In this document: one piece after another, positions 25,399 to 38,249 of the stretch
How positions within the stretch are numbered: position 1 is the stretch's first letter
Layout of the letters: each line of letters opens with the position of its first letter
DNA from: Spirochaetia bacterium
Lineage (GTDB): Bacteria; Spirochaetota; Spirochaetia; SZUA-6; Bin103
Length of the DNA: 64,000 nt
Direction of reading: 5' to 3'
NCBI GenBank assembly: GCA_965203905.1
Contig: CBDBDQ010000005.1
Coordinates: forward strand, 1,760,001 to 1,824,000
Translations under genes and position numbers: made by a program
Notes under the pieces: generated by a model
What the model was told of the DNA's origin: nothing
Database searches by the model: none
The model's input: the letters and a program-made list of their open reading frames with translations, nothing else

Positions 25399-26550
25399 TC
25401 ACGGACCGGATCTGCGACGGTTGCCGTCGGCGCTGGTCGCGGGTGGGCGGCGCGGCGGGGCGTGGTCTAGCACGAAGGTCATCAGCGACGGGATGCCGGC
25501 GACCCAGACGACCGGCGGCCGTTGGGCCGGCGGGCTCCAGACGTAGCCCAGCCGGTTCAATTCCTCGCGTGCCGCCAGTCGCCCCGCAGCGTCTTCGCCG
25601 GTTGCGACGAGGGCGTCATCGAGGTCGCGATCGGTCGCGGTCGCCGCACCGCCTGCGAACGGCGCCGCCGCCGCAACCGCCGCCGGCAGCAGGGCGCGCG
25701 CCTCCAGTTCCCGATAGCGGTCCTGGTAGTAGTCCGTAACCCGTCCGATTACGTGCGGTCGCGCCGCCGCTGCGTGCGCGGCGGTCAGCCGGGAGCCATC
25801 GATGGCCAGGCGCTGCTGCCACAGGGCGCGACCCCAGACTTGAATGAAGTACGGGTAGCGCTGGCTGTGCTCGACCACCGCATCGAGGGCATCGGCCTCG
25901 ATGCCGACGCCGTGGCCGGCCAGCGGGTCGATCAAAGCAGCGCGGGCAGCAGCGTCGCTCAGCAGGCCGATGCCGAGGCGTCCTTCATCCAGCCGGCTCC
26001 AGAACGAGGCGTTCATGGTATTCAGGTGCGCCGGCAGTCCCGGAGTACCGGCCAGCACCAGCAGCAACGGCGCGTCGGCGCGCACGTCCTGGCTCAGGTT
26101 GAGCAGCAGTTGGCCGACTTCACGCGTGAGGGTATGCGCTTCGTCGACCAGCACCACAGCCGGTCTTCTACGGCAGCGCGCAGTCAGCCGAACCGTGAGA
26201 TCCTGCGCCGATCGCTCCGGCGCCGCCCATTCGGCTTGACCGATGCCGCGCCGGATGAACGACGCCGGTAACAAGGCGTCGGCCAGGGACTGCCCGGTCC
26301 GTATCCGGCTCGGCGACAGCCGCACGACGTCCACCCTACCAGCGTCGCGACAGGTGCCCGCGAACCAGTTGAGCAGCACGGTCTTGCCGTTTCCGCGCGG
26401 CCCCATCAGCACCACGTCGTGCGGCGGGGCATTGCCGCCCAGCAGGTCAGCCAGGCACTGCGTCAATACGCCCTGCTCCCGCTCGCGGCCGGTCAGCGCA
26501 GGCGGAGCGGCGCCCGCACCGGGAGTGAATACCCGTTGTGGGGCTCTCAT
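25399..26550 (-). CDS. Standalone AAA+/STAND-like P-loop ATPase
   Basis: FTPGAGAAPPALTGREREQ, Walker A GPRGNGKT, Walker B VLVDEAH, YPYFIQ. Confidence 0.85.
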   Translation of the reverse strand: MRAPQRVFTPGAGAAPPALTGREREQGVLTQCLADLLGGNAPPHDVVLMGPRGNGKTVLLNWFAGTCRDAGRVDVVRLSPSRIRTGQSLADALLPASFIRRGIGQAEWAAPERSAQDLTVRLTARCRRRPAVVLVDEAHTLTREVGQLLLNLSQDVRADAPLLLVLAGTPGLPAHLNTMNASFWSRLDEGRLGIGLLSDAAARAALIDPLAGHGVGIEADALDAVVEHSQRYPYFIQVWGRALWQQRLAIDGSRLTAAHAAAARPHVIGRVTDYYQDRYRELEARALLPAAVAAAAPFAGGAATATDRDLDDALVATGEDAAGRLAAREELNRLGYVWSPPAQRPPVVWVAGIPSLMTFVLDHAPPRRPPATSADGNRRRSGP

Positions 26551-26889
26551 GGCAGCCACCGGACGGGGCGATACGCGATCACGGCCGGTAGGACCACTAC
26601 TCCTTCCTTGAATCAATGAGGCGTAACGCAGTTTCGATTGCCGTCAAGCCGTGCCGCCGGGCGGTGGGTCGTCCGTGCCGCTGCTGGCGCGTGTGATAGT
26701 CCGCCGCCTGGGCCCGGTGCCCAGCATGGCAGCCTTCGTGGCGATCCGCAATCTGCTGATACTGCCGATCATGGTGGCACCGCTGTTCGCCAACGCCGGA
26801 CGCTCCGACATCGGGTCTCGCTGATCATCGCCAGTGTGAACGGTTTCAACCTCGCGCGTGGGATCTCGATCACCGGCAACAGGCCTCGA

Positions 26890-27234
26890 CTACGCGTTGG
26901 CCACCGTAGCCTCTCGCAACCCAAGGAATCGCACGACCGCGTGGCTCAATCGCTCCATGTCCCGGGCACTCAAGTGACCGATGCGCTGCCCGAGTCGACT
27001 CTTCGGAACAGTCGTAATCTTGTCTGCCATGAGACGTGAGACCGACCTGAGCCCGTTGCTCTCACTCGGTGCTACCGGCAGCCGTATCAAGGGAGCCTCG
27101 GTCTGGTCCGTGGTGAACACACAGATCGTTATCGACGCGGTGGCGTCGAAGCGATTATCCTGCACGATTACAGCCGGTCGTGGTTTTCCGGCGTAGCCGG
27201 CTCCGGACACGGTCCACACCTCTCCGCGTCTCAT
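26890..27234 (-). CDS. mazF: PemK/MazF-family endoribonuclease toxin
   Basis: MRRGEVWTV..GKPRPAVIVQ..NGLRSVSRLMADKITTVPKSRLGQRIG. Confidence 0.92.
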   Translation of the reverse strand: MRRGEVWTVSGAGYAGKPRPAVIVQDNRFDATASITICVFTTDQTEAPLIRLPVAPSESNGLRSVSRLMADKITTVPKSRLGQRIGHLSARDMERLSHAVVRFLGLREATVANA

Positions 27235-28196
27235 TCGTCATTCGAATCCGTTATTGCATTGATGAAGGCTTGGTCCTCGCGCTCTCGGACGCTCTCGCCG
27301 ACCGCTTTGGAGTCTCGATGAGCGGCGCGACGATAGCCACACGAGGATGTGTCTTGCGTCAACTTGACAGCAGCATCGAAGTCACCTGCGGTATGCCATT
27401 CGATTCCATCCAGATTGACGGGACAACCAGCAGTCTCTAAGCGCTGAGCAAGCTGCTGCCGCTGTTGAGAAGTATTGTCGAGACGTAGGATATGACGCGC
27501 ACCAATGTCACTAAACGGCCGAACAGCTCCTAATTCCACAAGAATCGTCCTGTTGGAGTCTCTACCCATCGCCATGCCTGCTTCGAACAAGACGTTCGGG
27601 CGTGCCTGCCCGGTCGGTTCGACCTCGTATTTGGGATCGTTCTCGCTTCTGAACTGTTGCTTAAGGCACGCTTCATCGTCCGGCGTCAGTAACACGATCA
27701 CGGCATGAGCGCGTGCAAATGCAGCATTCAGAATCTCGCCAACATAGGGCGTTGGCTGTCCTGCAGCTTGCACCGCTTCGGACCACTCCAGAGGATCAAG
27801 CCCAACTGAATGCAAGAATGTGAATAGTGCTACTCGTGCTTTCTCGTTACGCCCATGGACTACAAACACGTGGCGTGAATCGGGCGGGGGAAACGAGCCC
27901 TTGGAGCCCCCGTGATCGGGGCCTTTCACTACTCCGGGAGGACCGGTTATCAGTTCATCGGTGACGTCCCGGCACACACTTTGGTCTTGCCATGATTCGT
28001 CTGTTTCTTCTATCGTTATACGTTCAATTTCTTCCAAACGTGTGGTCCTTCCGCGTAGAGTAATGGGCCTTCCTTCCTGGTACGGAACAAGCACACGGTG
28101 TCGGATCATTTCGAAAGATAAATCATCGACCCATTGCCAGTAGTTAGGATTCTCGACTGTGTAAATCTTTACGTGGTAGTACGCCATCTGTCCCAT
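27231..28196 (-). CDS. TIR-like nucleotide-binding protein (Cap12/PycTIR-type, PF10137) with a C-terminal MazE/DUF3018-like tail
   Basis: VFVVHGRN, LDPLEW, VIVLLTPDD, ARPNVLFEAGMAMG (catalytic Glu present), FSDIG. Last ~40 aa resemble a DUF3018 antitoxin C-terminus. ATGA overlap with mazF; visibly lower GC than flanks. Confidence 0.85.
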   Translation of the reverse strand: MGQMAYYHVKIYTVENPNYWQWVDDLSFEMIRHRVLVPYQEGRPITLRGRTTRLEEIERITIEETDESWQDQSVCRDVTDELITGPPGVVKGPDHGGSKGSFPPPDSRHVFVVHGRNEKARVALFTFLHSVGLDPLEWSEAVQAAGQPTPYVGEILNAAFARAHAVIVLLTPDDEACLKQQFRSENDPKYEVEPTGQARPNVLFEAGMAMGRDSNRTILVELGAVRPFSDIGARHILRLDNTSQQRQQLAQRLETAGCPVNLDGIEWHTAGDFDAAVKLTQDTSSCGYRRAAHRDSKAVGESVREREDQAFINAITDSNDE

Positions 28197-28268
28197 CCCT
28201 TTGGCTGAAACCGTGAGGCGTCGGCATAACGCTGGGCAAGCGCGCCAAGGTGGCGCACGGCCTACACA

Positions 28269-29525
28269 TCAGGTCGTCGAGTCTTCCGGGGCCTCGACTT
28301 CAAGGTCGTGATCCTCGCGGTAGGTTGGGTGGTACTCCTCGGTCTCCACGTCGGGGTCGGAGTCCGGGCGCAACCGCTGCAGATCCCACGTGGTGATAGC
28401 CGCGCGTACTTTGTACCGCATGCGCTTCTGGTGGCTGGCACCACCTACTGCAGCGGTGGCCGCTGGTGCGGCCCAGTCGTATGCGCGGCCGTAGATGCGT
28501 CTGATGTGCTCGACCGCGGCTTCCACAACGTCGTCGGTCACCTCGCTCAGCCTCGTGCGGCGTGAGGCGAGCCACCGCATGCCGAGTTCCGCTTGCCGCG
28601 CCATCTGTGCTTCATCACGCTCACGCAACCGCGCAGGCACCTTGAGGCGGTCTCCCTTCTCCTCCAGGATCGCCTGGGCGAAGTCCTCCGTGATGGCCGC
28701 CACAACCACCAGCCCGGGATATGAGTCGTCGTCCGCCGCACCCATCCAACGGGCCAATTCCGCATACGATCGCGCGCGCTGCAGGAGGCTGTAGCTGCCG
28801 ATCAACTCCAACTCGTCGATGAGCACGACCCAGCCGCGATAGCCGGCCGTCTTGATCATCTCCAGTACGAAGCGTAGACGCTGCGGAGGCAGGTCGCGGA
28901 GCTTCGGAGCGCGGAACGTGTAGGCACCTTGTTGCCCAATCTGGCGCAGACCGCGTTTTACGTCGCCCACCGCCACCTTGTCGCCCGACCAGAACCACCT
29001 GATGGAGTTCAACACCTCCTGATCCGGCAGCCGTTCATGCACCATCAGCGTGGCAGGGAAGATGCGGTGCAGGCCACAGCCAGTACTGTCGGCCCACTGA
29101 AAGAAGCGTGCGTAGCCCGCGTCTTTCGGACCCAGCAGTCTGTTTCCGATTTCATCTACCATGGCGCCGACTCTCCCGTCGGGGAGGGTGCCGCTGTCGG
29201 CCGCCGCACGGAACATCTTGCCCAGGTCGTAGAACGGCGTCTCCTTGCTCACGGCGACGCGGCTGCAAACGAAGTTTCGGTCCAGCGCAAGGTCCTCGAA
29301 GTGCTCCAGAAGGTGTGATTTCCCGGTACCGAAATCGCCCGAGATCAGCAAGCCACCGGGATTATTGCCCGCGTCAAGACCGAGGCGAGCCTGAAACTGT
29401 TGTTCCGCCTGGGGTTGCGTGCTGCCGAGAATGCGCACCGCCTCGCGGTTCGGAACGCCGTTGCGCAAGGCCTCTATCGCACGCCGACAAGCAAGCTGAT
29501 CAGGCATGTTCCGGTCTGCTTCCAC
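28269..29525 (-). CDS. DUF2791 / BrxD-like P-loop ATPase with intact motifs
   Basis: AIEALRNGVP, Walker A GDFGTGKSH, ISKETP-like VSKETP, Walker B VVLIDELE. Confidence 0.82.
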   Translation of the reverse strand: MEADRNMPDQLACRRAIEALRNGVPNREAVRILGSTQPQAEQQFQARLGLDAGNNPGGLLISGDFGTGKSHLLEHFEDLALDRNFVCSRVAVSKETPFYDLGKMFRAAADSGTLPDGRVGAMVDEIGNRLLGPKDAGYARFFQWADSTGCGLHRIFPATLMVHERLPDQEVLNSIRWFWSGDKVAVGDVKRGLRQIGQQGAYTFRAPKLRDLPPQRLRFVLEMIKTAGYRGWVVLIDELELIGSYSLLQRARSYAELARWMGAADDDSYPGLVVVAAITEDFAQAILEEKGDRLKVPARLRERDEAQMARQAELGMRWLASRRTRLSEVTDDVVEAAVEHIRRIYGRAYDWAAPAATAAVGGASHQKRMRYKVRAAITTWDLQRLRPDSDPDVETEEYHPTYREDHDLEVEAPEDSTT

Positions 29526-29532
29526 GCCGGCG

Positions 29533-30483
29533 TCAACCCGTCATGCGGCACAGCGCCGCCGCCGGATTCTCCATTCTCTTGTCGCGTACGTCATCGATTA
29601 TCCTGGTCTGCAAAGCCGGATAGATGCCCACGCCGCGCGACTGTCGATCCGCTTCCTGATCAAGAAACTCGACTTCGCAGCAGGACACTATCATGCTTGC
29701 CGAAAGCAGGTCGGCACTGTCGATGAATTCGCGCAGTATCTCATAGAAGTCCATGGTCATGGCCCTTGTGTAGTAGCGCGAGCCGTCGGACTGTCTCTTC
29801 CGCGCGGTGACCCGGGCGCTGTCGAGAATCACTACCGTCCCGGGGAATCCGACCTTGGCAAACCAGTAGAACGCGGAGCGCAGCAGATGCCGTGCCGTGT
29901 TGCGGTTGATCGGGTTGTAGATCGAGAATGGCTTGACGTTCGAAATGCGCGTGTTGGCACCCGTGAGCCAGTCGATGATCGGCTGCCCAGGATAAGGCTG
30001 TTCCGCGGAACGCTCGAACAGGCACAGGTGCGACATGGCGACACGGAAATCCTTGGCCATGTTCACGTCGTAGAAGACCTGTCGCTGCAGGCGCGGATTC
30101 AAGGCGGCAAGGAGGAACTCCTTGGCTACGTTGTTGCGTTCGGCCACGGCGTGCAGCGCATCCTCGTCGGCCGCCCCCACGCCCTCCGTCAGGTAGCCTT
30201 CATCAGCAACCAGCTTGAGCAGGAAAGAACGCGCGGCCAGACGCCAGTCCACCTGCGCGGCGAGAGCGAAGAACAGATCCTGCGGCATGTGGAAACGATG
30301 CGTGGCGGCATCCGCGGTCAGCACGAGATAGTCATGACTCTCTGCCAGCGTGGTGAGAGCGGATCGCAACTCGGACCGCTGTCGGTCGTCTCCCACGACA
30401 AATTTGACTGCCGTCCCGCCACGTTTGACGAACGTAGCGAGATAATCCCGTTCGATCTGCTCCAGCCACTCCGCGAGGTGCAT
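29533..30483 (-). CDS. DUF2791 / BrxD-like protein with degenerate Walker motifs
   Basis: GGTAVKFVVG followed by DDRQRS instead of GxGK[ST]; Walker B position VVILDS; YEILREFID and YPALQTRI resemble the BrxD C-terminal region. Confidence 0.7.
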   Translation of the reverse strand: MHLAEWLEQIERDYLATFVKRGGTAVKFVVGDDRQRSELRSALTTLAESHDYLVLTADAATHRFHMPQDLFFALAAQVDWRLAARSFLLKLVADEGYLTEGVGAADEDALHAVAERNNVAKEFLLAALNPRLQRQVFYDVNMAKDFRVAMSHLCLFERSAEQPYPGQPIIDWLTGANTRISNVKPFSIYNPINRNTARHLLRSAFYWFAKVGFPGTVVILDSARVTARKRQSDGSRYYTRAMTMDFYEILREFIDSADLLSASMIVSCCEVEFLDQEADRQSRGVGIYPALQTRIIDDVRDKRMENPAAALCRMTG

Positions 30484-30487
30484 CGGT

Positions 30488-31276
30488 CTACTCGGTGAAT
30501 TGAACCCCGTAGTAGCGGATCAGGTTGCCATTGCGATCCACAAACGAGAAGATTCCGGTACTCCCTCTCACGGAACCGGTAAAGCTGACCCGTGCTCCTG
30601 ACTTCGTGGTCGTCACCGGCGAAGAATCCAGAAGGTAGATATCACGCGCGAAATCGGTCTTCGTATACTGCGCGCTGGTCCCCGGCAGCGAGGTGAACAC
30701 GGCGTAGATCTCGGCCAGCGGAACCACCCGAGTGACGTCCGACAGGGGATCGGAAGTCTTGCCTTCGATGACTCTGAATGCCTTGTAGAGCGCGTTCAGG
30801 AAGCGCTGTTGTTGGGCGGCGCTCTTCGGCCGCATCCGCTGCTGAATGGCACGCAGATCAGCCGCGAGCTTCGAGGGACGAACGGCCACACGCTTCTTGC
30901 CGTCGATTTTCAGCGCGCGATCTGCAGGGAACAGTCGAATAATCGACGGCGAACATACGAGTGCATCGTCGCGGCTGCTGACATTAAGCCCGACTGCCGC
31001 TGCCTCACCACGCAATTCGTCTGCATACCGCTCGCTCAGGTAGGCCGTCTCGTCGGACTCTGCGAATGGCCAACTCCCCTTGGCATCGGTCACCTTTTCG
31101 CCCGTTGTTCCCAGTGTGGCGACGAGCTGCTCACCCTCACGCCGAATCTTGCCGATGTCTCCCTCCTGAGCTGCTCTCCGCAACTTTCGTGCGGTCGCGG
31201 CCAACACCTTGGCGGCGGCCTCCGCTGCTTCGGCAGCCGCTTCGACCGCGGCGAAGGCCTGTTCGAAGGTCGGCAT
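30488..31276 (-). CDS. Hypothetical protein with Ala-rich helical N-terminus, first gene of the ATPase cassette
   Basis: 262-aa ORF with natural composition; starts 1 bp after the cytochrome stop and ends 4 bp before the next gene. Confidence 0.75.
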   Translation of the reverse strand: MPTFEQAFAAVEAAAEAAEAAAKVLAATARKLRRAAQEGDIGKIRREGEQLVATLGTTGEKVTDAKGSWPFAESDETAYLSERYADELRGEAAAVGLNVSSRDDALVCSPSIIRLFPADRALKIDGKKRVAVRPSKLAADLRAIQQRMRPKSAAQQQRFLNALYKAFRVIEGKTSDPLSDVTRVVPLAEIYAVFTSLPGTSAQYTKTDFARDIYLLDSSPVTTTKSGARVSFTGSVRGSTGIFSFVDRNGNLIRYYGVQFTE

Positions 31277-31277
31277 A

Positions 31278-34196
31278 TCAGGGTGACCCCAGGGTGAGCA
31301 GGTAGTCGCGCAGGACCTCCAACTGGTGGCCGGTGTCGCCGCCCAGCACGTCGGGGGCGCCGAGCGGGTAGAACGCCGGCATGCGGGTGCCGGGCATCAG
31401 CGACTGCGGGTCGGCCAGCCAGTCGATGATCCAGTCGGGGCGCAGCCGCTGTGCGGCCAGCGCGAAGTCGGGCGCCCAGCGGTCCGGGGTGCCCGGCGGG
31501 AACTGGTCGCCCTGGATGTGACAGGTGGTGCAGTTGAAGTAGTCGGGCGAGAACATGGTCAGCGCCGCGGTCAGCTCCTCCGGCGCCAGGTCCGGCTGCA
31601 CCTGCTCCGCGAACGGATAGGCGGCGGCGTCGAGCGCGGTGAAGTAAGCGGTCAGCGCGTTGCGGTGCTCGGCGCTCATCCCGTAGCTGGGCATGCGCAT
31701 GCGCAGCCAGGGCCGGATCGTGGACGGCTCGTGGAAGAACGCGAACAGCCAGTCGGTCTGAACCTTGCGCCCCTCGCCCAGCAGGTTGGGCGGCGAGAAG
31801 CTGGCCGCCAGGGTGTCGGCGTCGGCACTGGAGCGCCCCTCGAACCGTTCCAGCCAGCTCGCCACCTGTTCCACTACCGCGCCGCCCTCGCCCTCGATGA
31901 CGTGGCAGCCCTGGCAGTTCATCTGCCGCACCAGGCGCTGCCCGGTCTCGAGACGCAGGTTGCGCGGCGTGCGCGGCACGATCCTGGTGACCTGCGGATC
32001 GACGTCCACGAACCCCGACAGTGCCGTGACCATGGCCTCCACCTGCTGGTCGGTGAAGCGGAAGTTGGGCATCCGGCTCTGCTGCAGCGGCTCCAGGTCG
32101 CGGTGCAGGTCGAACACCCGCGGATCGGTCAGCTTGGCGGTCCACCAGGCGGTGCGGCTGTGCTCGATATGGAGGAAGCCGAAGTCGAACTGGTGCAGGG
32201 CCTTGCGGCCGATGTTGGTAAGCGCGGTGCCGATCGGTTGCGCGTCCTCGAAGCCGGCGATGTCGTGACAGGCGAAGCAGCCGTACTGGGAGATCAGCCG
32301 CTCGCCCGCGTACTCCAGCTTCTGGGCACGGTTCATGCCGGAAAGCTGATCCTGGGCCGTGATCATCGGCGCGGTGTTGGACAGGTAGTCGAGCGCGATG
32401 CGGTCGACGATCTCCTCGTCCACCGCCGGGACCGCCCGCCCTGCGAATGCGGCGTCGGTGGAGCCCATCAGGTAGGCGGTGATGTCGGCGGCTTCCTGAT
32501 CGGTGAGCCGCAGGCTGGGCATGCGCGTGTCGGGATGGTAGCTGGCCGGATCCTTGAGCCAGTTGTAGACCCATTGCGCCGAGGTCTTGCTGCCCAGGCC
32601 CTGGAAGTTGGGACCGAACTGGCGCCGCAGATCCTGCTGGCTGGTGACCGTGCGCTCGGTGGCGCCCACGGTCTCCTCCGGAGCCTGGTGGCACGCCATG
32701 CAGCCCACGGACGCCACCAGCTCCTCGCCCCGCACCGGATCGCCCCTTACCGGGATCGGCTCCATGTCGTAGGCCGTGCTGTTGGCGAACAGGTAGCTGA
32801 CGATGGCGATCACTTCCTGGTCGGTGCGCGCCACCGCCTCGGGACCGCTGTTGTTGCTCTGGCCGAAATAGGCAGGCATCCAGGTCTGCGCCCGGAACCC
32901 GGCGGGATCCTTGATCCACTGGAACGCGAACTCCGGAGACAGCTTGTCGGCCACGTTGCGCAGGCTCGGCCCACGCTTGGGAGCCCCGGCGAAGCTGGCG
33001 ATCTCGTGACACGAGTAGCAGCCCGCCTGCTCGACCAAGTCCAGCCCGTAGCTGAGCTTGGCGGCGCCGCGGATCTGGGTCTGGCCGCTGTGGCACTGGA
33101 AGCAGCCGGCCTCCGCGTAGCGCAGCGGATGCATCGGCTCCTCCCACAGGTGGTACTCTTTCCAGCCGAGGCGCTCCTCCCAGTCGTGGAGCTGCTCCTC
33201 GGAATCGGGGATGTGCACCGTGCCGACGAAATCGGTGGCGCGGCCGCGGCCGCCGTGGCAGCTGGTGCAGCCGAATTCCTCCAGCGGATGCGGCGAGTCG
33301 CTGGCCACGAACAGGGCCAGCCGCGGATGCGCCCCGTGCGGGTTCTCCACCCCTTCCAGGTCGGCGCGCTCCACGCCCTGGTGACAGGTGACGCAGCGGT
33401 CTACCCGTGGCACCTGGGCGAAGTTGAGGTTCTCCCTGATGTCGGCCAGCACCACCTGCTCGACCTTCAGCGAGGGCTGCGACAGGTCCAGGATCGGCAG
33501 GTCACGGATCACGTTGGCGATCTTCACTCCGACCGGCGAAAACTCCGGGTCCATCCGCACCAGCCGCCGCATCAGCAGGTCGGCGTCGCGCGACTCCTGG
33601 TCGCGGGCGCGGGTGGCGTCGCGGACGTCGTCCTCGAATCCCTGCAGCGCCGCGGTGGCCTGGTCCAGGGCCAGCTGCGCTTCTTCCTGGGCCACCGAGG
33701 CGCCGGCGAACTCACTCTGCCAGCGGTCGAGCTGGCCTGAGGTGCGTTCGCGCCGCAGCCCCAGACCCTCGGTGCCGGCAGCCGCCTGCTCGTCGCGGTA
33801 GCGGGCCCGCTCCATCTGTGCCTTCACGTTCTGGAAGCGGGAGTTGACGATGTCGAAGCGCGCCTTGAGCCGGTCCACCTCGCGCTCGGCGGCGCGCACC
33901 TCGTCCTGCCGCGCCTGCAGCGACTCCTCGGCGGCGGCCACCTGCTCGCGCGCCCGTGCCAAGTCGGCGCTGTTCTCCATCTGCACGGCCATCTCGTCGT
34001 ACGCGCCGCGCGTGACGTCACGGTCGATGCGCCGGAACTCGCGTTGCCAGCGCTTCCACTCACGCCCGTAGTCCTGGGCGAACGAGGCGATGATCGTGAC
34101 CAGGAGGACGATGCTGCCGATCGCGAACCACTTGTTGAGGGTGCCGATCTTGTAGTGCCGCTCTTCCGGCTGCGGTGCTTGAGGACGGACTGCCAT
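31278..34196 (-). CDS. Membrane-anchored octaheme c-type cytochrome of a Rieske/cytochrome b complex
   Basis: Eight CxxCH motifs (CVTCH, CTSCH, CFQCH, CYSCH, CMACH, CFACH, CQGCH, CTTCH); N-terminal TM helix followed by a long coiled coil. Confidence 0.9.
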   Translation of the reverse strand: MAVRPQAPQPEERHYKIGTLNKWFAIGSIVLLVTIIASFAQDYGREWKRWQREFRRIDRDVTRGAYDEMAVQMENSADLARAREQVAAAEESLQARQDEVRAAEREVDRLKARFDIVNSRFQNVKAQMERARYRDEQAAAGTEGLGLRRERTSGQLDRWQSEFAGASVAQEEAQLALDQATAALQGFEDDVRDATRARDQESRDADLLMRRLVRMDPEFSPVGVKIANVIRDLPILDLSQPSLKVEQVVLADIRENLNFAQVPRVDRCVTCHQGVERADLEGVENPHGAHPRLALFVASDSPHPLEEFGCTSCHGGRGRATDFVGTVHIPDSEEQLHDWEERLGWKEYHLWEEPMHPLRYAEAGCFQCHSGQTQIRGAAKLSYGLDLVEQAGCYSCHEIASFAGAPKRGPSLRNVADKLSPEFAFQWIKDPAGFRAQTWMPAYFGQSNNSGPEAVARTDQEVIAIVSYLFANSTAYDMEPIPVRGDPVRGEELVASVGCMACHQAPEETVGATERTVTSQQDLRRQFGPNFQGLGSKTSAQWVYNWLKDPASYHPDTRMPSLRLTDQEAADITAYLMGSTDAAFAGRAVPAVDEEIVDRIALDYLSNTAPMITAQDQLSGMNRAQKLEYAGERLISQYGCFACHDIAGFEDAQPIGTALTNIGRKALHQFDFGFLHIEHSRTAWWTAKLTDPRVFDLHRDLEPLQQSRMPNFRFTDQQVEAMVTALSGFVDVDPQVTRIVPRTPRNLRLETGQRLVRQMNCQGCHVIEGEGGAVVEQVASWLERFEGRSSADADTLAASFSPPNLLGEGRKVQTDWLFAFFHEPSTIRPWLRMRMPSYGMSAEHRNALTAYFTALDAAAYPFAEQVQPDLAPEELTAALTMFSPDYFNCTTCHIQGDQFPPGTPDRWAPDFALAAQRLRPDWIIDWLADPQSLMPGTRMPAFYPLGAPDVLGGDTGHQLEVLRDYLLTLGSP

Positions 34197-35303
34197 TTAT
34201 ACGTTCAAGAAGAATTCCGGGATCGAGACGATGTACTTCAGGTTGAACAGCCAGCGCGTATACATCTTGATCGGCAGCGCCAATCCCATCAGCAGCAACA
34301 CGATGAAGAAGCTGTAACGCACCACGCCGAGGCGTTGGAACAGCCGCTTGAAGACGGTCTGCGCCAGCAGCCCCGGGAGGATGGCGAAGTACCCCAGAAT
34401 CAACAGTATCCCGAACAGCTCGCGTACCAGGATGTTCTCCGGCAGCCCGGAACGCAGCAGGAAGATGTAGACGTATTCCGAGAGGTTGACGTTGTTCAGC
34501 ACCTCCCGCTTGTTCGGGTCCCAGAATTCGAATGGTCCATAGAAATTCCAGTTGGGCCCGCGAAAGAAGGTGCCCACCAGGATCAGGAAGATCCACATCA
34601 CCACGAAGCCGAACAGGAAGATGCTGATCGACTTCATGCGCGGCTTGTAGCTGTAGAAGCCCTGGCCGCCGGGGTTGATGTCCATGTAGGGGATGGCGAC
34701 CAGGCCGACGATGATCAGCGTCGGCAGCACCACGCCTGCCAGCCACGGGTCGTAGTAGACCAGCATCTCCTGCAGGCCGAGGAAATACCACGGCGCCTTG
34801 GACGGGTTGGGCGAGACCGTGGGGTTGGCCGGCTCCTCCAGCGGCGCCTTGAGGAACAGCGACCAGACGATCATCAGCGCCATCGACAGGATCAGGGAGA
34901 TGAACTCCACGTATACCAGGTCGGGCCACACCAGCACCTTCTCGTTGTCCAGCGCCTCCTGCGGCGGCTCGCCCTTCTCGGCGCGCAGGTCGTTCTCACG
35001 CGCCTGCTTCATCGAGTACCAGAGGAAGAACGGCACCAGGAACAACAGCGCCGTGATCGGGATGTTGTCCGGCTTGAACACGATGAGGCGAAAGTTGGCG
35101 TCGGTGATGCCCCACAGGAAGAAGATCGCCAGCAATGCGAAGAACACGATGCCGCCGGCCGGGGTCCACAGCAGGTCCAGCTTCAGGCGCCGGTTGAGCT
35201 GGTACAGCCTGCCGCCGGGCGGAAAGATGAAGAAGAACCCGACGATGAAGATCGAGAACAGGATGGCCGGGTTGGAGACCCAGTTGAAGAATTGCTTGAG
35301 CAT
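34197..35303 (-). CDS. Cytochrome b6-type subunit IV (PetD/QcrC-like), extended
   Basis: VWPDLVYVE, PLEEPANP..PNPSKAPWYFLGLQ (PEWY-equivalent); extra TM helices at both ends. Confidence 0.85.
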   Translation of the reverse strand: MLKQFFNWVSNPAILFSIFIVGFFFIFPPGGRLYQLNRRLKLDLLWTPAGGIVFFALLAIFFLWGITDANFRLIVFKPDNIPITALLFLVPFFLWYSMKQARENDLRAEKGEPPQEALDNEKVLVWPDLVYVEFISLILSMALMIVWSLFLKAPLEEPANPTVSPNPSKAPWYFLGLQEMLVYYDPWLAGVVLPTLIIVGLVAIPYMDINPGGQGFYSYKPRMKSISIFLFGFVVMWIFLILVGTFFRGPNWNFYGPFEFWDPNKREVLNNVNLSEYVYIFLLRSGLPENILVRELFGILLILGYFAILPGLLAQTVFKRLFQRLGVVRYSFFIVLLLMGLALPIKMYTRWLFNLKYIVSIPEFFLNV

Positions 35304-35312
35304 TTCTTGCCT

Positions 35313-36179
<867 letters not shown>

Positions 36180-36217
36180 GGATCGCGTTACTCCTCGTGT
36201 TCATCTTGCTGCGCTCG

Positions 36218-37111
36218 CTACACGGCCAGGAACGACTCGGGGTCGCTCCACTCGCCCTTCTCCCACTGGTACTTGCGGGTCTTGTCGACCAGGATCTGGC
36301 CGTCGTCGGCCAGTGCCACGCGGTAGCGCTCCAGTGGCCGCGGCGCCGGCCCTTCGAAGTTGATCCCGGTCTTGCGGAAACCGCTGCCGTGGCATGGACA
36401 CTTGAACTTCTGCTCCCCGGACAGCCAGTTGGGCGTGCAGCCGAGGTGGGTGCAGACGGTCGACAGGACGTAGATCTCGGTCGGGGTGCGCACGATCCAG
36501 ACGCCGAACTGATCCTTGAAGCGGGTCGACACGTCGCCCACCGTGTACTCCTCGGGAAACCCGGCACGGAAGGTTTGCGGCGGCTCGAACAGCACGTTGG
36601 GAAACAGAAAGCGCACCGTGCCGATCAGCGTGCTGGCGGTGAGCGCCCCGAACGCCAGCCAGCCCGCGGTGATCCAGGAGAGGAAACCGCGGCGCGATAC
36701 CTCGCCACCGGCGACCGCGGCGCTCGCTGCGCCGCCCCCCGCACTGCCTCCGGAGCGCGAGCTCACGGCGGCCGTAGAGCGCGCCCCGGCCGCACCGGCG
36801 CGTGCCGCGCGGGCACCTGCCGCGGCCCGCGCTGCCGGCCGTCCCGCTGCGCCACCCGCCCGCGGGCTGGCGCCCGCGGCAGCCGCACGGCGCGCTGCGG
36901 CGGCTGCCTTGGACGGCCGCGCCTCGTCGGCAGGCTTGGGCGCGGCGCTCTTGGCGTCAGCGTCCTGTGGCGCGGCGCCCTTCGAGGCAGCATCCTTGGG
37001 CGCTTCCGCTGCGTCGCCGGAGCCGCCCGTGGTACCTGGCTCCTGGGGTTTGGGCGCCCGGGGTTTGGGCGCCTGGGGGCCGGTGCCGGCTTTCGCGTCT
37101 TCTTGGCTCAT
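36218..37111 (-). CDS. petC: Rieske iron-sulfur subunit with long Ala/Pro-rich N-terminus
   Basis: Tat motif SRRGFL plus TM helix, CTHLGC, CPCHGS, GPAPRPL. Confidence 0.92.
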   Translation of the reverse strand: MSQEDAKAGTGPQAPKPRAPKPQEPGTTGGSGDAAEAPKDAASKGAAPQDADAKSAAPKPADEARPSKAAAAARRAAAAGASPRAGGAAGRPAARAAAGARAARAGAAGARSTAAVSSRSGGSAGGGAASAAVAGGEVSRRGFLSWITAGWLAFGALTASTLIGTVRFLFPNVLFEPPQTFRAGFPEEYTVGDVSTRFKDQFGVWIVRTPTEIYVLSTVCTHLGCTPNWLSGEQKFKCPCHGSGFRKTGINFEGPAPRPLERYRVALADDGQILVDKTRKYQWEKGEWSDPESFLAV

Positions 37112-37171
37112 CTCGGTCTACTCGTTCTCGGGTTCTCGCGCGCCGGGGATTCCGGGCTCGGTAGGGTACCG

Positions 37172-38137
37172 TCAGCGCTTACCATAATTATTTACCGCTT
37201 GCTGTGCAATTCGTCTCACGCTCAAACTTACATCATCGCGCGCCAGCGTGGCGATGCGATCCTGCAACTCCCGGTCGGCGAACGGTGCGGCCGCCTCGAC
37301 CACCGTGGCCATCAGCAGATTCTGGTCCCGGTCGTCCACGTTGGGGAACTGCTGCAGATGCTCGCGGTCGAGCAGTTGCAGCAGGATCGTCTTGCCGCTC
37401 AGGTCTCCCAGCCGCGCCAGCGCCAGGGCGGCGTCCCAGGTCACCGCCGGCTCGGGGTCGTGCAGGGCGCGCTGCAGCGCCGCCGCCGCCGCCGGGTTCC
37501 CGGCCAGCCCCAGGGCGGTCGCCGCCCCGGAACGCACGCGCCCCGATTCGTCGTTCAGGTAGGGCAGCACCTCCGGGACTACCTCCGGGTCGCCGAACAT
37601 GCCCAGCGCCACCAGCAGCATGAAGCGCGTGCCCTCGGATTCCTGTGCGATTGCAGCGCTGATCGGCTCGATGAAGGCCTCGTTGCCGGCCCGCGCCATG
37701 GCCAGCGCCAGGTACTGGCGCACTCGCGGGTCGTCGTGCTCGGAGGCCTCGAAGACCCCCAGCATCTCCGCCGCGAAGCGCTGCTCGCCAGGCACGCGCT
37801 CGGGGTCGGACAGGATCTTGGACAGCTCGAACGCCGCCTGCCAGCGCTTGGTGGCCCCGCCGACCTTCACGTCGGCGATGTAGTCGTAGACCGTGTGCGG
37901 CTCGTTGGTCAGGATGCGCCAGGTCACCACCAGCAGCCCGGCGAACACCGCGATCAGAAACGGGATGATGAAGAAGGAGTGGATGATGACGCTGATGAAC
38001 GAGCGCTGCTGCGGCTGTTGGGCCGCGGCCTCCGCGGTGGTGCCGTTGGCGCCGTGAGTGGCGTCGGGCGGCTCCGGCGTGCCGTTGGCGCCGGGTTCGG
38101 GCAAGGAGACTTCGGGCCGCTGATCGGCGGGATCCAT
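37172..38137 (-). CDS. Membrane-anchored HEAT-repeat protein
   Basis: TM helix then repeats such as DPRVRQYLALAMA, GRVRSGAATALG, PAVTWDAALALA; upstream of the Rieske gene. Confidence 0.8.
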   Translation of the reverse strand: MDPADQRPEVSLPEPGANGTPEPPDATHGANGTTAEAAAQQPQQRSFISVIIHSFFIIPFLIAVFAGLLVVTWRILTNEPHTVYDYIADVKVGGATKRWQAAFELSKILSDPERVPGEQRFAAEMLGVFEASEHDDPRVRQYLALAMARAGNEAFIEPISAAIAQESEGTRFMLLVALGMFGDPEVVPEVLPYLNDESGRVRSGAATALGLAGNPAAAAALQRALHDPEPAVTWDAALALARLGDLSGKTILLQLLDREHLQQFPNVDDRDQNLLMATVVEAAAPFADRELQDRIATLARDDVSLSVRRIAQQAVNNYGKR

Positions 38138-38249
38138 CGCCGGCAGTCTACGGAGATGGCACGCCGTCTTCAACCGCCCGCGCCCGGCGTCGCGCAAGCC
38201 GGATCCGCGCTGCTGGCAGCGGACGGCCGCGCCGCGTTACCGTTGCCCG

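Follow-up and report, generated by a model that had tools for sequence, protein, structure and literature searches.

Among the described systems, those that come closest to the locus analysed here include the TIR effectors of the PF10137 family (Cap12, the TIR-STING protein of CBASS, and PycTIR of Pycsar), and the type II toxin-antitoxin (TA) operons in which a DUF3018 antitoxin directly precedes a PemK/MazF toxin. Both Cap12 and PycTIR have NADase activity. A DUF3018 protein encoded upstream of a MazF-like toxin is reported as the putative pair TA5 of a Pseudomonas syringae plasmid (PMC6354349). The two kinds of systems have also been connected in Escherichia coli: a preprint reports that MazF acts there as the executioner downstream of TIR-STING toxicity, and that deletion of mazEF protects the cells (10.1101/2022.06.09.495361). 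A literature search, which covered papers without their supplementary files, returned no description of a TIR-antitoxin or TIR-MazE fusion.

The window, i.e., a stretch of 64,000 nucleotides from a Spirochaetia bacterium (contig CBDBDQ010000005.1, positions 1,760,001 to 1,824,000), carries a locus in which an immune enzyme and a TA pair appear to be physically tied together. On the minus strand, the reading frame 27231..28196 encodes 321 residues, in which a TIR domain of the PF10137 family stands between an N-terminal domain and a tail of 40 residues. The true start is probably the ATG at 28187, giving 318 residues, because the copy in the sequence collection (P0001) and the homologues begin at this second methionine. 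The tail (residues 282-321; 27234..27353, minus strand) is followed immediately by a mazF/pemK gene of 114 codons (26890..27234, minus strand). Indeed, the plus-strand tcat at 27231-27234 reads ATGA on the minus strand, so that the TGA stop of the fusion gene (27233-27231) overlaps the ATG of mazF (27234-27232). By this overlap, the locus displays the type II TA gene order, with the antitoxin directly upstream in one operon. An earlier note on this DNA had proposed a TIR gene with an antitoxin-like tail overlapping the mazF start, and this is what the reading frames, the Pfam matches, and the ATGA confirm. In NCBIfam, neither the fusion protein nor MazF received a useful name. A promoter and terminator scan was uninformative (one promoter-like site, on the wrong strand, for 1.2 expected), and no RNA run was among the listed sequencing runs that carry the locus. 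The explanation that we favor, with good confidence, is that of a protein with two jobs, i.e., a TIR body of the CAP12/PycTIR type and a disordered MazF-binding tail that would be the sole antitoxin of the coupled MazF, arisen once and having a lock and release behavior toward the toxin.

The identity of the tail is established by its alignment with the DUF3018 family. In the whole-protein scan, residues 282-321 match positions 25-65 of the 65-position profile PF11455 (MazE-like, formerly DUF3018) at E = 0.0088 and 16.4 bits, under the 22-bit gathering cut-off; scanned alone, the tail reaches E = 2.6e-4 and 21.4 bits, still under 22 bits. For comparison, a canonical DUF3018 member scores 94.4 bits over positions 3-64. 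Hence, the protein falls below the cut-off as a full-length PF11455 member and possesses the homologous C-terminal half. All of the 10 homologous tails scanned match PF11455 at E <= 1, and when the tail profile is compared by hhalign with 19 canonical DUF3018 antitoxins, the probability is 98.8%, with E = 1.1e-16 and 55% identity over 40 columns. The tail aligns with canonical columns 34-73, the first of which correspond to the PD that closes the conserved WVPD motif, and the canonical N-terminal half that ends in WVPD is absent. The tail is thus homologous to the C-terminal, MazF-binding half of DUF3018/MazE-like antitoxins, as the earlier note had suggested, including its remark on the missing N-terminal half; the canonical motifs that this note named were found in 41 metagenome loci. 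A search of PDB sequences with the tail profile gave two chance matches only (E > 8).

Proteins with other N-termini carry this tail, too: that of P0128 is ribbon-helix-helix/VapB-like, and P0127 and P0262 have still other N-terminal parts. The tail therefore behaves as a portable neutralising module, which may be shuffled more widely. We also considered an internal TTG at codon 279 as a start for a free tail peptide; this is unlikely, since no ribosome-binding site is apparent for this codon, nor is the codon conserved.

The earlier claim that the locus has no separate antitoxin gene holds as well. The ORF listing contains no other antitoxin frame between or beside the fusion gene and mazF, and this locus is the single PF11455 match in the whole genome. 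Most likely, the fusion protein is the only antitoxin of this MazF. Another MazF of the genome (44% identical) is accompanied by an antitoxin of its own, a DUF3018-like protein of 71 residues, which may cross-neutralise the MazF of the window.

As for the toxin, PF02452 matches the 114-residue protein with 73.1 bits (cut-off 23.1; E = 2.6e-20), residues 2-103 covering positions 1-108 of the 109-position profile. The protein is 75-94% identical to many MazF proteins, and its closest solved structure is Mycobacterium tuberculosis MazF7 (E = 2.2e-8). It would thus be an endoribonuclease toxin. One may ask, however, whether the module is decaying or inert, with a MazF that is inactive or otherwise neutralised and a vestigial tail; the broken copies of same-genus relatives and the second DUF3018-like antitoxin of the genome would agree with this. 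We regard it as improbable, since both reading frames are intact, the tail retains every column that is invariant across the fusion proteins and the canonical antitoxins, and MazF is 72-94% identical to 36 aligned homologues, with 33 invariant columns in the 37 sequences.

As the earlier note had proposed, we modelled the tail together with a MazF dimer. The model predicts that the tail binds across the dimer: residues 288-318 contact both MazF copies and cover MazF residues 9-19, 26-34, 39-51, and 69-77 of the two subunits. The ipSAE values were 0.86, 0.86, and 0.85, against 0.08 for the best of three controls, a score that may also stem from the memory that the model has of solved MazE-MazF complexes; solved complexes attain the corresponding mark in 58 of 80 cases and mismatched pairs in 2 of 110, counts that hold roughly here since own alignments were used. 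The runs share at least 79% of their contacts, and the partner pLDDT is 75. In the monomer model, the pLDDT of the tail is below 50. Paired differences between tail and MazF at the clade level (D/I/N/A vs Q/F/D/V) were examined as a sign of co-evolution, and this reading was rejected, as they represent one event among kin.

Upstream of the tail, the TIR domain (Pfam residues 110-238; 27483..27869, minus strand) belongs to PF10137, the CAP12/Pycsar TIR family (87.4 bits for a cut-off of 24.7; E = 9e-25), and its modelled fold extends to about residue 283 (base 27348). The motif around E205, which we take, by analogy with TIR NADases, to be the putative catalytic glutamate, shows no variation across the 18 aligned proteins. 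This long conservation argues against the TIR domain being a mere dead carrier of the tail. Among defence models, PADLOC reports PycTIR (E = 9.1e-5) and five PDC-S35 models (E from 7.2e-18 to 7.6e-12), PDC-S35 being a candidate single-gene defence family only, a term that no paper found in our literature search uses. By structure, Foldseek ranks TIR-STING and other TIR domains first in the PDB, with weak matches throughout (E >= 4e-3); no match at E <= 0.001 was obtained for the models of the window protein or of the middle domain found in longer relatives. The N-terminal domain (residues 5-65; 28002..28184, minus strand) is modelled by AF2 as a small beta/alpha fold, with strands at 6-13, 20-26, 45-47, 50-52, and 57-65, a helix at 28-41, and a block pLDDT of 73-85. 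It has no match in the Pfam scan, and its top Atlas score is just 0.75, to AbiJ_NTD5, which we take as a lead only. This domain is kept across the aligned homologues and is possibly a sensor.

We then considered how widely the fusion is distributed. Among the top 120 TIR homologues, exactly 12 possess the tail; they are 59-83% identical to the window protein and form, with one fragment, a single clade (SH-aLRT 99). A profile search adds P0123, P0256, and P0258, for a total of 15 PF10137 clusters with the tail, from several sources, and thereby answers the suggestion of the earlier note to look for other TIR-DUF3018 fusions. Tail-less relatives end after the TIR domain or after a winged-helix-like domain. 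Judged from these sequences, the fusion is old and clade-wide and not a recent accident. Hence, the idea that a TIR gene had replaced the N-terminal half of an antitoxin while its tail was kept stands as a structural inference, from Pfam and hhalign, and fails as a local or recent insertion. That the frame joins two genes through an assembly or sequencing artefact is a negligible eventuality: no evidence was found for it, at least 15 protein clusters from other assemblies display this in-frame junction, and, among independent Logan contigs, one of 4141 bases covers 26700-28400 with zero differences, while the contig of a second run bridges 27211-27519 (the run that best covers the locus may be that of the source sample). 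The junction check called for by the earlier note thus came out in favor of the locus as assembled.

For three of the fusion proteins, the longest contigs have the same size as those of MazF proteins (8687, 2701, and 13399). From these matching contigs and from two decayed same-genus loci only, we infer that mazF also neighbors other intact fusions. Outside the window genome, an intact fusion was found in none of 23 other genomes of the family (5 of which had fragments or tail-less relatives) and in none of 91 other genomes of the order. No TIR fusion was found in 401 sampled genomes of the phylum, 3 of which have PF11455 matches at E <= 0.01, one of them over the cut-off. A contig search with the fusion protein gave two loci, both from tail-less Chloroflexota MAGs; among plasmids, 20 records match the TIR part only, and none covers >= 80% of the query. 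The 41 loci of a metagenome scan with the tail motifs include no TIR fusion, all being canonical antitoxins or pieces of them.

In long-form relatives, a middle domain, winged-helix-like by weak fold matches only, lies between the TIR domain and the tail. It has been lost by in-frame deletion on at least three occasions, with boundaries that differ, and the tail was kept. Probably, the ancestral form had this domain, and the lineage of the window lost it later in frame. The direct TIR-tail junction described by the earlier note is therefore correct for the window and would not be ancestral. The TIR domain itself can be deleted: in P0257 (123 residues; 5 sequences on 4 contigs), the N-terminal domain is joined in frame to the tail, and the same arrangement is found in a same-genus genome (G010). 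All the deletions seen upstream of the tail are in frame, which fits a logic where neutralisation must be kept. In another genome (G006), a single deletion took the tail and most of mazF together. In same-genus relatives, the module has decayed and is therefore dispensable.

These observations must be weighed against a passive reading, raised in the earlier note as survival through preserved neutralisation, in which a neutral fusion was frozen because its tail cannot be lost as long as MazF is active, with no selected functional link, the TIR part working or decaying independently. This reading predicts precisely that deletions upstream of the tail are in frame only, and it accommodates the loss of the middle domain and even of the TIR domain with the tail kept, the decay of the module in relatives, and the lack of an intact fusion in the other genomes of the order and in the phylum sample. 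On the other hand, the clade extends down to 59% identity and yet its TIR motif is invariant and its N-terminal domain kept; at least 15 clusters of several origins contain the fusion; and a neutral fusion would be expected to resolve, or its TIR domain to gather missense decay. We thus find it rather unlikely.

The explanation that we favor, a TIR protein carrying the antitoxin of its downstream toxin, accounts for these observations by a single origin. A TIR gene, then with a winged-helix-like C-terminal domain, would have been joined, in frame, to the antitoxin gene of a canonical DUF3018-mazF operon, keeping the distal half of that gene and losing the N-terminal half, with the ATGA junction of the operon inherited unchanged. 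In this arrangement, mazF would be translationally coupled downstream of the fusion gene. As the tail is at the extreme C-terminus, the antitoxin would be lost with any nonsense mutation, frameshift, or out-of-frame deletion in the TIR gene. The halt of fusion-protein synthesis, or proteolysis, would likewise free MazF. By tying the antitoxin to the TIR gene, such an arrangement would allow MazF to lock this gene against truncation and would make its own activity depend on whether the TIR protein is supplied and intact.

This can be extended to an active coupling, compatible with the favored explanation. In this guard or two-stage switch, an idea present in the earlier note as guard-like MazF release, the TIR protein would sense infection, and MazF would be freed when this protein is activated (by oligomerisation or NAD+ loss), or when a phage destroys or inhibits it; NADase activity would be followed by RNase activity, or bound MazF dimers would keep the TIR monomers apart until the trigger. 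The conservation of the TIR motif and of the N-terminal domain throughout the tail clade suggests a TIR protein that remained functional after the fusion arose. In the short form, about 5 residues separate the last modelled TIR helix (residues 273-283) from the first MazF-contacting residue (288), so that a bound MazF dimer would be predicted to sit against the TIR domain. The reported E. coli precedent of a MazF acting downstream of TIR-STING (10.1101/2022.06.09.495361) and the low-GC island beside BrxD-like ATPases where the locus lies point the same way. However, long forms put a whole domain between TIR and tail, so that this close contact is not conserved, and the tail is retained in the TIR-less P0257 and G010, whose tail thus has a role that does not need TIR. 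We hold the coupling as a minority possibility. Equally tentative is the broader picture of a "toxin leash", in which the tail wires the TIR enzyme to MazF: the toxin would kill when the TIR gene is truncated or when its product is degraded, blocked, or unmade, and TIR activation would feed MazF release in a two-effector abortive-infection switch. If this is true, MazF guards both the TIR gene and the TIR protein.

A natural joining of a defence enzyme and a TA pair in one polypeptide opens the reported TIR-to-MazF death pathway to direct tests, and it suggests a general route by which a toxin can lock a costly defence gene against loss-of-function truncation. It is also a warning for annotation: an "orphan" MazF may have its antitoxin hidden as the 40 C-terminal residues of a larger protein encoded upstream, and such a tail can fall below the Pfam cut-off in a whole-protein scan, as here.

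The locus lies in a low-GC island adjoining BrxD-like ATPases, and five genes from 31276 to 26890 run in the same direction. The assignment of the upstream ATPases to the BREX BrxD equivalog was rejected (64.6 and 20.8 bits for a cut-off of 350), and no other BREX family (PglZ, PglX, BrxC) was found in the ORFs scanned.

Compared with the PF10137 effectors, the fusion protein shares the TIR domain and the conserved glutamate motif and differs by having, in the Pfam scan, neither a STING nor a cyclic-nucleotide-binding (cNMP) domain. No cyclase gene is found among the neighbors scanned from 25399 to 38197, and the locus is not assigned to CBASS or Pycsar. With the canonical DUF3018-PemK/MazF operon, it shares the toxin family, the C-terminal antitoxin half, the gene order, and the ATGA overlap. 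Indeed, in 33 of the 41 canonical metagenome loci, a MazF 49-75% identical to that of the window lies directly downstream, and 18 of 22 canonical DUF3018-mazF pairs share the 4-nt overlap, some of them also with flanking bases that are nearly identical. The difference is that the N-terminal half, up to WVPD, is replaced here by about 280 residues, i.e., the N-terminal domain and TIR. Neither the Pfam scan nor the AF2 model of the window protein displays a DNA-binding domain, and with the canonical N-terminal half missing, any autoregulation that this half might provide is no longer possible. By its portable behavior, the tail resembles modular type II antitoxins in which N-termini are swapped, such as those of NetFlax-type networks, whereas the partner here is an immune enzyme domain and not a DNA-binding domain. 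Finally, as in the TIR-MazF axis of E. coli, a TIR NADase and a MazF RNase may belong to one death pathway; the E. coli link is reported to be indirect, via (p)ppGpp and the loss of a free-standing MazE (10.1101/2022.06.09.495361), while here the link would reside in one polypeptide and one operon.

The fusion gene (ORF 27231..28196, minus strand, 321 aa) and mazF (ORF 26890..27234, minus strand, 114 aa; PemK/MazF, PF02452, E 2.6e-20) overlap by four bases (27231-27234, minus strand), tcat on the plus strand being ATGA on the coding strand, where the mazF start codon ATG runs into the stop codon TGA of the fusion gene. The ATG at 28187 is likely the true start of the fusion gene, since its homologues and our collection's own copy of the protein (P0001) start at the same Met. 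The protein carries a TIR domain of the CAP12/Pycsar type (aa 110-238; Pfam PF10137, E 9e-25), in which the motif that surrounds E205 does not vary among the 18 proteins aligned. PADLOC assigns the protein to PDC-S35, a candidate single-gene system (E 7.2e-18), with PycTIR as a weaker match.

The two genes are the last of five closely packed co-directional genes and lie within a stretch of 56-61% G+C in a genome of ~70%. The three genes directly upstream (28269-31276, minus strand; intergenic gaps of 0-80 bases, G+C ~0.61 vs. ~0.70) encode a 262-aa protein without family match and two BrxD-like P-loop ATPases of 316 and 418 aa. The scores of the latter fall far under the BREX BrxD cut-off and BREX membership was rejected for them; the three genes could together form a defence module not yet described. 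Downstream of mazF, 270 bases away, lies a 405-aa AAA/ORC-Cdc6-like or STAND-like ATPase gene (25399-26616, minus strand) of background G+C and with no PADLOC match. The low-GC island also adjoins a respiratory cluster with cytochrome bc-type genes (31278-38197), which includes a 972-aa multihaem cytochrome c, split cytochrome b genes, a Rieske protein, and a HEAT-repeat protein. The earlier note had named misassembly as a possible origin of the TIR-tail junction. One Logan contig, which may be from the source sample, spans 26700-28400 without difference, and another, from a second run of the same study, bridges 27211-27519; because of these contigs and of the conservation of the same junction in other assemblies, an artefact is ruled out.

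The earlier note, from DUF3018 motifs, had proposed that the tail (aa 282-321) is the toxin-binding half of an antitoxin deprived of its N-terminal half. In Pfam, these residues match positions 25-65 of the 65 of PF11455 (MazE-like) weakly (E 0.0088, 16.4 bits, for a cut-off of 22); scanned by itself, the tail reaches E 2.6e-4 and 21.4 bits, still under this cut-off, and 10/10 homologous tails match at E<=1. A metagenome scan using the two most conserved motifs of the tail gave 153 pattern matches and 41 confirmed loci, all of which carry canonical small DUF3018 antitoxins, or pieces thereof, with a TIR domain joined to the antitoxin at none. At 33 of the 41, a MazF 49-75% identical to that of the window lies directly 3' of the antitoxin. 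These canonical antitoxins (94.4 bits against PF11455 for one of them) have an N-terminal half that is conserved up to its final WVPD, and their C-terminal half closely resembles the window tail. When the profiles of 10 tails and of 19 canonical antitoxins are compared, the probability is 98.8% (E 1.1e-16, 55% identity), the window tail corresponding to columns 34-73 and beginning at the PD of WVPD. Moreover, the same four-base toxin-start/antitoxin-stop overlap exists in 18/22 canonical pairs, some of which nearly match the window in the flanking bases as well. Hence, on the PF11455 matches, the metagenome antitoxins, the profile alignment, and the overlaps, the earlier note proved correct both in its motifs and in its proposal: the toxin-binding half has been retained and the N-terminal half lost.

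Complex modelling predicts that the tail binds the MazF dimer. Two MazF chains and residues 277-321 of the fusion protein gave ipSAE values of 0.86, 0.86, and 0.85 (best of three controls, 0.08); the same mark is reached by 58/80 solved complexes and 2/110 mismatched pairs, a calibration that holds only roughly since our own alignments were used. The runs share at least 79% of contacts (partner pLDDT 75), and tail residues 288-318 span both MazF subunits, contacting residues 9-19, 26-34, 39-51, and 69-77. As MazE-MazF complexes have already been solved, this high score may stem from a similar complex already familiar to the model. The monomer model shows a folded N-domain (aa 5-65) and a folded TIR domain (aa 109-283), and its top PDB matches, all of them weak, are to TIR-STING and other TIR domains. 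From residue 284 on, pLDDT is <50 and the tail is disordered, as would be expected for an antitoxin peptide folding upon binding.

A whole-genome PF11455 search gave no match other than the tail locus. A second MazF, 44% identical, is encoded far from the window pair (contig 5, ~782.5 kb; locus L003, 1501-2032, minus strand) and is preceded by its own 71-aa DUF3018-like antitoxin, whose ORF overlaps that of the toxin and whose PF11455 match is weak (E 0.012); cross-protection of the window MazF by this antitoxin is unlikely. In the best-supported reading, the fusion protein is probably the sole antitoxin of MazF, acting via its C-terminal tail.

The large TIR family comprises 5450 proteins at E<=0.001, out of 7463 candidates, and among its best 120 homologues the tail is present in exactly 12, which are the 12 top-ranked matches (59-83% identity with the window protein). 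A rapid maximum-likelihood tree built from N-domain and TIR (63 rows; of the first 70, 7 were missed by the motif filter and left out) places these 12 in one group (SH-aLRT 99), together with one fragment ending just before the tail position, a topology compatible with a single origin of the fusion. Three more proteins with PF10137 and tail (P0123, P0256, P0258), and several fragments, came from a profile search aimed at longer proteins. Five long forms of the tail clade (P0002, P0003, P0006, P0007, P0011) present a ~95-residue domain between TIR and tail, which is also the C-terminus of tail-less relatives (e.g., P0013, P0016, P0020, P0033); it is modelled confidently (pLDDT 93.5), and its nearest fold matches, each of them weak (E >=0.02), are winged-helix proteins (eS10, QsrR, SqrR, MarR-type). 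This domain is wholly or partly gone, with differing boundaries, in the window protein, P0004, P0005, P0008, P0009/P0012, and P0010; these boundaries and the tree indicate that it was deleted at least three separate times, each in frame with the tail. On the toxin side, the nearest MazFs (82-94% identity, 114-117 aa) are set apart from a very large group of 107-aa MazFs at 75-81%. In three cases, fusion and MazF proteins have exactly equal longest contigs (P0004/P0131, 8687; P0008/P0139, 2701; P0252/P0150, 13399), and in P0251, a long ORF, the mazF frame extends back through tail-coding DNA.

The intact fusion was found in none of the other 23 genomes of the family or the other 91 of the order. 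Two genomes of the same genus retain the upstream BrxD-like genes (82-93% identity), followed by TIR/mazF remnants. In G010 (locus L012, 1399-1842, minus strand), the N-domain leads in frame straight into the tail, with the TIR domain lost, and the following mazF is without its first 59 codons. In G006 (locus L013, 1504-2100, plus strand), the remnant ORF runs from the TIR end through the middle domain and the first tail residues into the last ~24 MazF residues, and one deletion appears to have removed tail and toxin together. Both remnants fit toxin-antitoxin logic. An intact N-domain plus tail protein of 123 aa with the TIR deleted, P0257, is also known from 5 sequences on 4 contigs. A contig of coral-metagenome run X3 joins tail-coding sequence (27247-27331) to the region 5' of the TIR gene (28236 onward), skipping the whole TIR gene (904 bases) with 26 other bases between; given its low likeness and a depth of 5.6, it may be from another organism. 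Several TIR-family homologues of related genomes are split or carry in-frame stops (TGA, TAA, TAG) at L010, L011, L015, and L061/L062 (G023, G020, G472), and tail-less TIR copies thus seem to decay by truncation, which the arrangement of tail and MazF would forbid.

Indeed, if the fusion protein is the only antitoxin, a truncating mutation anywhere in the TIR gene, or a halt in synthesis of the protein, would leave MazF unopposed. Selection could then have favoured the tail because it locks the defence gene, because it guards the TIR protein, or because it makes a two-step kill switch; that it is a purely passive frozen accident seems to us improbable. Active coupling between TIR and MazF is a somewhat better, still doubtful, candidate. 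A preprint on E. coli (10.1101/2022.06.09.495361) reports MazF to act downstream of TIR-STING toxicity, mazEF deletion protecting cells, and thereby offers a precedent for a TIR-to-MazF axis.

The tail is not confined to TIR proteins. The same tail stands behind a ribbon-helix-helix (RHH)/VapB-like domain in P0128 (84 aa) and behind uncharacterised parts of 60 aa in P0127 (101 aa) and 250 aa in P0262 (290 aa). In P0261 it belongs to a complete DUF3018 antitoxin that ends in 'FINAVTD', as the fusions do, and is extended by 170 aa at its N-terminus; the starts of some of these four may be mis-called. Our literature search found no description of a TIR immune domain carrying an antitoxin tail. 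Exchange of N-terminal domains is a familiar trait of antitoxins, and what seems new here is the TIR immune domain as carrier.
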